From contig JACPQY010000024.1 of the NCBI GenBank assembly GCA_016190245.1, positions 121,620 to 185,619 on the forward strand: 64,000 nt of DNA, in the 5' to 3' direction. The notes beneath the pieces are model-generated. The model was not told the DNA's origin and did not search any database. It saw nothing but the letters and a program-made list of their open reading frames with translations. Made by a program: the position numbers and the translations under genes. Origin of the DNA: Nitrospirota bacterium. GTDB taxonomy: Bacteria > JACPQY01. Below, piece by piece: positions 22,531 through 22,604 of this stretch; within the stretch, counting starts at the first letter, position 1, and every line of letters begins with the position of its first letter.

Positions 22531-22604
22531 GTCTTTCCCGCGAAAGCGGGAATCCAGGACAAAGCTCAAGAAGATCTGGATTCCTGCTTCCGCAGGAATG
22601 ACGA
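22531..22604. repeat. REP-like intergenic element, copy 1 (two stem-loops: cccgc-GAAA-gcggg and attcctgc-ttcc-gcaggaat)
   Basis: gtctttcccgcgaaagcgggaatcc...tctggattcctgcttccgcaggaatgacga. A second copy is at 30998..31054 with the same two hairpins (copy 1 carries an extra 15-bp insert). Confidence 0.55.

Follow-up and report, generated by a model that had tools for sequence, protein, structure and literature searches.

Two intergenic elements in an uncultured bacterium identified by sequence as inverted dimers of the CGTC-1/dRS3/NTS repeat

Introduction

The CGTC-1 family of repetitive extragenic palindromes (REPs) was described by Di Nocera, De Gregorio and Rocco (2013, BMC Genomics 14:522; PMC3733652). 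It corresponds to dRS3 in Neisseria, and the Rickettsia element RPE-6 is also included in it. The CGTC-1 unit consists of an unpaired CGTC or TGTC (or CCTC) tag, an 8-bp stem, a 4-nt loop and a CCA tail. Its stems begin with two A-T pairs, and its dimers mostly carry the tags on the outside, an arrangement designated "HH" (PMC3733652). The same study located REPs mostly downstream of ORFs, encountered no species in which CGTC units flank a RAYT gene, and found no dedicated transposase for them (PMC3733652).

Chenal et al. (2025, Nat Commun 16:2388; PMC11893778) redefined a longer motif as the NTS, CGTCATTCCCGCGMAVGCGGGAATCYRG. The NTS/SRM is recognised by the small GIY-YIG nuclease SsnA, which binds the hairpin and cuts upstream of it, acting on single-stranded DNA only and on one strand only (PMC11893778). 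SsnA cutting depends on the three bases that precede the palindrome, and binding on the C that directly follows it. The published Ssn nuclease neither binds the RNA form of the motif nor acts on RNA. Across phyla, ssnA genes, which encode small single-domain GIY-YIG proteins (cd10448), are often bracketed by the motif, whose mobility was left open in that study (PMC11893778).

REPIN/RAYT systems (Bertels and Rainey 2011, PMC3116915) resemble the elements described here in their architecture, an inverted doublet of REP hairpins that is separated by a short spacer and folds either as one long or as two short hairpins. They differ in their tag, which is GTAG where the present elements have CGTC, and in having a RAYT gene flanked by units, an arrangement that is missing here.

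Here we analyse two intergenic elements in a 64-kb stretch of DNA, hereafter the window, which corresponds to C10:121620-185619 in an assembly of 3.29 Mb (86 contigs, 64.6% G+C, 85% complete; G000 below). Judged by their sequence, both elements are inverted dimers of the published CGTC-1 REP, Neisseria dRS3 or NTS-SRM repeat, in its usual dimer form. The repeat family is thus already known and very widespread, and the only local particular is that no canonical ssnA was found.

Results

Both elements are built from a single inverted unit

Both elements were located, with an offset of at most one base from the initial annotation, at window positions 22530-22603 and 30997-31053 (Table 1). An exact search of the 64-kb window for the 28-mer CTGGATTCCTGCTTCCGCAGGAATGACG gives two occurrences, 22576-22603 and 31026-31053; shuffled sequences (n=100) lead one to expect none. 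The left hairpin, TCCCGCGAAAGCGGG, lies at 22536-22550 and 31003-31017. When its pattern, TCCCGCGAAAGCGGGRAWCCAG, was searched with up to three mismatches, four matches were obtained in the window: the two left hairpins, on the plus strand, and the two right hairpins, on the minus strand. In this minus-strand reading, the right hairpin differs from the left-hairpin pattern by three mismatches, two of which make up a compensatory change from a C-G to a T-A pair. The right hairpin is therefore the left-hairpin pattern on the opposite strand, and both elements consist of one unit arranged as an inverted dimer. With its unpaired CGTC and CCAG included, this unit measures 28 nt and has the layout CGTC-ATTCCsGCG-RAA-GCsGGAAT-CCAG, with an 8-bp stem and a 4-nt loop.

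These results bear on how the elements had been described. The initial annotation reported the same pair of stem-loops in both, and this is borne out, including the exact 28-nt match. Its two different hairpins, however, are a single unit in inverted orientation, and the 15-bp insert that it placed in copy 1 does not fit the spacers, which differ by 17 nt (18 nt in copy 1, 1 nt in copy 2). The gene upstream of copy 2, a 476-aa ORF that had been labelled Nramp-like, does not carry that label on domain evidence, as Pfam gives no match even at E<=1. Between the two dimers, a 1342-aa ORF (window 25463-29491) belongs to a very large paralogous family, with 120 matching pieces in the related genome G001 and no clear orthologue at the syntenic place.

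Table 1. Repeat units, adjoining hairpins and neighbouring genes, in window coordinates
Feature	Position	Strand	Remarks
Copy 1 left unit CGTCTTTCCCGCGAAAGCGGGAATCCAG	22530..22557	+	First stem position T not A, giving a 7-bp stem
Copy 1 spacer GACAAAGCTCAAGAAGAT	22558..22575	.	18 nt; separates CCAG/CTGG ends
Copy 1 right unit, minus-strand reading CGTCATTCCTGCGGAAGCAGGAATCCAG	22576..22603	-	Fold -7.8 kcal/mol, z -4.5
Small flanking palindrome GACGA-GCTC-TCGTC	22600..22613	.	Overlaps right-unit CGTC tag of copy 1; sequence inspection
Metallophosphoesterase gene	22705..24048	-	Metallophos and purple acid phosphatase N domain; copy 1 lies ~100 nt downstream of the stop codon
476-aa ORF	29540..30970	+	Copy 2 begins 27 nt past the stop codon
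Extra hairpin GACGCGGG-CACTC-CCCGCGTC	30980..31000	+	Starts 10 nt 3' of the 476-aa ORF stop codon
Copy 2 left unit, variant type CGTCGTTCCCGCGAAAGCGGGGACCCAG	30997..31024	+	First stem pair G-C vs canonical A-T
Copy 2 right unit	31026..31053	-	Identical to copy 1 right unit; base 31025 is the 1-nt spacer
tgt, queuine tRNA-ribosyltransferase	31129..32235	+	PF01702, E 6e-154; 76 nt downstream of copy 2

The fold predicted for a single unit in single-stranded DNA has an energy near -8 kcal/mol (-8.3 kcal/mol with a z of -3.8 for the left unit of copy 1). Copy 1 has an alternative fold as one long hairpin at -21.6 kcal/mol. The preferred fold of copy 2 comprises three separate hairpins, among them the extra hairpin GACGCGGG...CCCGCGTC, with 8 bp in the best predicted fold of 30970-31060. 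The 3' arm of this extra hairpin provides the CGTC tag of the copy 2 left unit.

The unit recurs across the genome as an intergenic family

To search the genome we used the pattern GTCRYYCCNGYGNNNRCNGGRRYCCAG, in which pairing is left free at several positions. This structure-neutral pattern returned 19 units, compared with none for the reversed control, so that the family extends well beyond the two copies of the initial annotation, which had named a genome-wide search as the check on its reading. An nhmmer profile combined with inspection of the loci brought the inventory to about 27 full-length units. Twelve inverted dimers were recognised, and in all 12 the CGTC ends point outside and the CCAG ends inward; there are also about six singletons. 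One of these dimers, the third on the window's contig, lies 43 kb past the window end. Dimer spacers, of 1-25 nt, show no conservation. There is a longer-stem variant, and a few units carry small loop insertions. In two units, C3:2833-2883 and C25:264-302, the loop insertions measure 23 nt and 12 nt, and the insertion is itself a small hairpin.

By a crude ORF call from third-position G+C, no unit overlaps a coding ORF, and the gene contexts are mixed, with unidirectional, convergent and divergent pairs all represented. The alignment of six tight dimers with their flanks revealed no larger repeat around them, conservation stopping at the CGTC tags, and an all-against-all BLAST of 3-kb flanks recovered only other, unrelated small repeat families. 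Nor was a recurrent neighbour gene detected by Pfam among ten ORFs beside dimers: six belong to unrelated families, among them DUF433, PadR, TPR, HNH and a weak cytochrome c match, and four had no match.

Further repeats of other kinds were seen in the window. A 35-nt palindrome, TACTGTACA-N4-GACGGCCGTC-N4-TGTACAGTA, is present at 51049-51083, 51773-51807 and 51974-52008, where its copies surround a 216-aa ORF on the minus strand (51116-51766). It has 17 sites genome-wide (reversed control, 0), including one 15 nt from an NTS singleton on contig C44, and has the appearance of an operator or terminal inverted repeat. Members of other short interspersed families are present at 21490-21620: a unit of ~70 nt at 21490-21565 has dozens of copies with 75-90% identity across contigs, and window 21558-21620 is 92% identical to 11223-11285.

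Stems covary while the flanks are invariant

The alignment comprised 38 units, of which 25 come from this genome and 13 from its sole relative, G001; a unit with a 5-nt loop on contig C44 was omitted. The resulting consensus is CGTCATTCCCGCGAAAGCGGGAATCCAG. G2, T3, C25, C26, A27 and G28 are invariant in the 38 units, C4 is kept in at least 90% of them, and the stem is variable. Position 1 of the tag is C in 31 units, T in six and A in one. The loop measures 4 nt in all 38.

The structure ....((((((((....)))))))).... was then evaluated against this alignment. Paired cells amounted to 98.1%; shuffles gave 84.6%, and sliding the partner by 1-3 columns left no more than 52%. Cells changed on both sides numbered 37 vs 9.2 in shuffles, and none of 500 shuffles reached 37. 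Such both-sided change was seen in five of the eight stem pairs. Of 33 distinct rows, 23 have A-T at the first stem pair and 27 have T-A at the second. At the free position 10/19, CG occurs 20 times, GC ten times and UA twice. Since the pattern used for discovery already constrained some paired positions to purine or pyrimidine, covariation is shown more cleanly by the slid controls and by the unconstrained position 10/19.

The consensus fits the published NTS

The consensus agrees exactly with the published NTS. Matches to the latter in the genome number four with at most one mismatch and 14 with at most three (reversed control, 0), and the degenerate SRM pattern gave 36 genome matches vs 10 in the reversed control. 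The positions that are invariant here are those published as critical for binding and cutting by Ssn (PMC11893778), a pattern read as a signature of protein recognition.

The likeness to CGTC-1 extends to the CGTC/TGTC tag, the 8-bp stem with its first two A-T pairs, the 4-nt loop and the CCA tail. It also extends to the organisation of the family, as the dimers here are HH (12/12), the copies are intergenic and no transposase gene lies alongside. There are also differences. About 27 units is a low copy number compared with the families of that paper, which range from <100 to thousands, and most dimers here combine a canonical unit and a stem variant, homodimers being the predominant form there (PMC3733652). 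Unlike the CGTC-1 hosts, the present host is an uncultured lineage, in a GTDB phylum with two species genomes only.

Copies are widespread among bacteria and turn over between relatives

G000 and G001, the phylum's two species genomes, both contain the unit, and one dimer subtype is common to these two genera. In a sample of 41 genomes, nearly all of unrelated families, 11 contained the unit, and the reversed controls gave none. The dimer type of the window, a GGGG-variant unit joined to a canonical unit, was found in at least 120 stretches from many phyla. Among the matches listed, these include Alpha-, Beta-, Gamma- and Deltaproteobacteria (Pseudomonadota) as well as Acidobacteriota, Gemmatimonadota, Planctomycetota, Patescibacteria, Anaerolineaceae (Chloroflexota), Aminicenantes and further lineages.

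Individual sites could be compared between the two relatives. G001 preserves the synteny at the junction of the 476-aa gene and tgt, with protein identities of 71% and about 70%, and the G001 intergenic region between the two orthologues contains no unit. No unit was found in the region downstream of the G001 metallophosphoesterase orthologue either. Conversely, a dimer on G001:C27 sits between two genes whose G000 orthologues flank a unit-free intergenic region of 360 nt on C59. All three comparable orthologous sites are thus occupied in one genus only, indicating that copies have been gained or lost. The intergenic DNA of G000 and G001 is too diverged to reveal target sites.

Searches for a canonical ssnA in the genome and its relative were negative

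A Pfam GIY-YIG search of G000 yielded five small ORFs with open frames of 107-171 aa. No unit or SRM-like hairpin was found near any of the five genes. Three of them each follow a tRNA gene (Leu-GAG, Pro-GGG or Arg-CCG) at a distance of 10-25 nt, the loci being C33:~64790-65150, C56:~111640-111980 and C33:~23210-23560, and the gene on C56 is bracketed by a repeated hairpin pair.

Three of the sampled genomes (G007, G011 and G012) carry an Ssn-type GIY-YIG gene of 95-114 aa within tens of bases of NTS units. These NTS-adjacent proteins have a GFTxxY motif and mostly also a KxWxRxWK motif, neither of which occurs in the five small G000 proteins. One NTS-adjacent Ssn from the sampled genomes, P0001, served as the query for canonical Ssn. 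Its best matches in G000 and G001 showed 36-39% identity over the GIY-YIG core only, and the small GIY-YIG proteins of G000 reached at most 36%. In a tree, four NTS-adjacent proteins stood apart from the five G000 proteins with moderate support (84/92). NCBIfam offered no informative family for the small GIY-YIG proteins.

Taken together, the Pfam GIY-YIG and P0001 searches found no canonical ssnA in G000 (85% complete) or G001 (97%). Unlike the published NTS/Ssn system, neither genome showed an NTS-ssnA-NTS arrangement. Among eight sampled genomes with at least seven units, canonical Ssn was present in three and absent in five. Orphan NTS sets, without canonical Ssn, thus appear to be common.

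Discussion

We consider it highly probable that the two elements are inverted NTS/CGTC-1 dimers with a DNA-level function, and that the copies in this genome are probably orphans. Following the literature on Ssn, the repeat would work at the level of DNA: in single-stranded DNA, the 8-bp hairpin together with the unpaired GTC on its 5' side and the C on its 3' side would form a binding and cutting site for an Ssn-family nuclease. Because the dimer is inverted, either strand would present one correctly oriented site. The ~27 units here are most likely orphan copies, since no canonical ssnA was found in this genome. Such copies could have been left by past activity, could be served by an unassembled or non-canonical nuclease, or could be active only on DNA that enters an Ssn-bearing cell.

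A bolder version, which we regard as unlikely, is that the NTS dimers of this two-species phylum are kept in shape without canonical Ssn, and would be recognised by a different partner. It builds on the invariant GTC/CCAG flanks, the compensated stems and the dimer type common to two genera. Candidates for such a partner would be the divergent small GIY-YIG proteins, three of them encoded after tRNA genes, or another single-stranded-DNA enzyme. As an alternative, the repeats could be "cut-me" marks with no function other than on DNA that is exported to neighbours with Ssn.

The initial annotation had considered a REP-like intergenic family, a terminator and a small structured RNA. The first of these is supported: a family of ~27 genome units with covarying stems fits the published REP super-family (PMC3733652), although not as two distinct stem-loop modules. 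The other two belong to a reading in which the hairpins would act chiefly at the RNA level, terminating transcription without a factor or stabilising the mRNA 3' ends of upstream genes, as has been proposed for many REPs. Both window copies do lie downstream of genes (100 nt from the metallophosphoesterase gene and 27 nt from the 476-aa ORF), where REPs are mostly found (PMC3733652), and the hairpins are stable in predicted folds. However, none of the arms is followed by a T-tract, and the terminator scan was empty at 22530-22613 and 30980-31053, while copies on C3, C51, C55 and C41 sit between divergent genes by the crude ORF call. The Rfam scan that had been suggested gave no match to either element up to E 10; over 21500-32500 at E<=10, the sole match was an unrelated miRNA model (E 9.9) elsewhere in the region. 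Furthermore, an RNA hairpin does not require the invariant unpaired GTC/CCAG flanks, which coincide with the positions needed by the published single-stranded-DNA nuclease, an enzyme that neither binds the RNA form nor is active on RNA (PMC11893778). A mainly RNA-level role is therefore improbable, although transcribed copies may have a secondary effect at the RNA level.

We give very little credence to the idea that the units serve a site-specific recombinase or an IS110-type element as attachment or target sites, in the manner of dRS3 for Neisseria filamentous prophages. dRS3 has indeed been named as a phage recombinase target (PMC11893778), and the genome holds one IS110-family transposase gene. 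That gene, however, is on contig C15, which has no units in the nhmmer inventory; no insertion was seen in or abutting the 12 dimers, save for two units with small loop insertions, and the genes on either side are of unrelated housekeeping or regulatory kinds.

Least credible of all are REPINs, inverted REP doublets mobilised by a genome-encoded RAYT (Y1 tyrosine transposase): the doublet architecture, the long-hairpin fold open to copy 1 (-21.6 kcal/mol) and eight Y1_Tnp genes in the genome would suit them, but none of the eight Y1_Tnp loci has a unit within 1.5 kb, the tag is CGTC where RAYT-linked REPs have GTAG, and RAYT genes flanked by CGTC units are absent from every species surveyed (PMC3733652).

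With the inverted NTS/CGTC-1 dimer as the preferred reading, two intergenic oddities and ~25 more units are now assigned to a published repeat family, which matters little beyond annotation. NTS sets without a canonical ssnA nevertheless bear on a question posed by the literature, namely who spreads and maintains the CGTC/NTS repeats.
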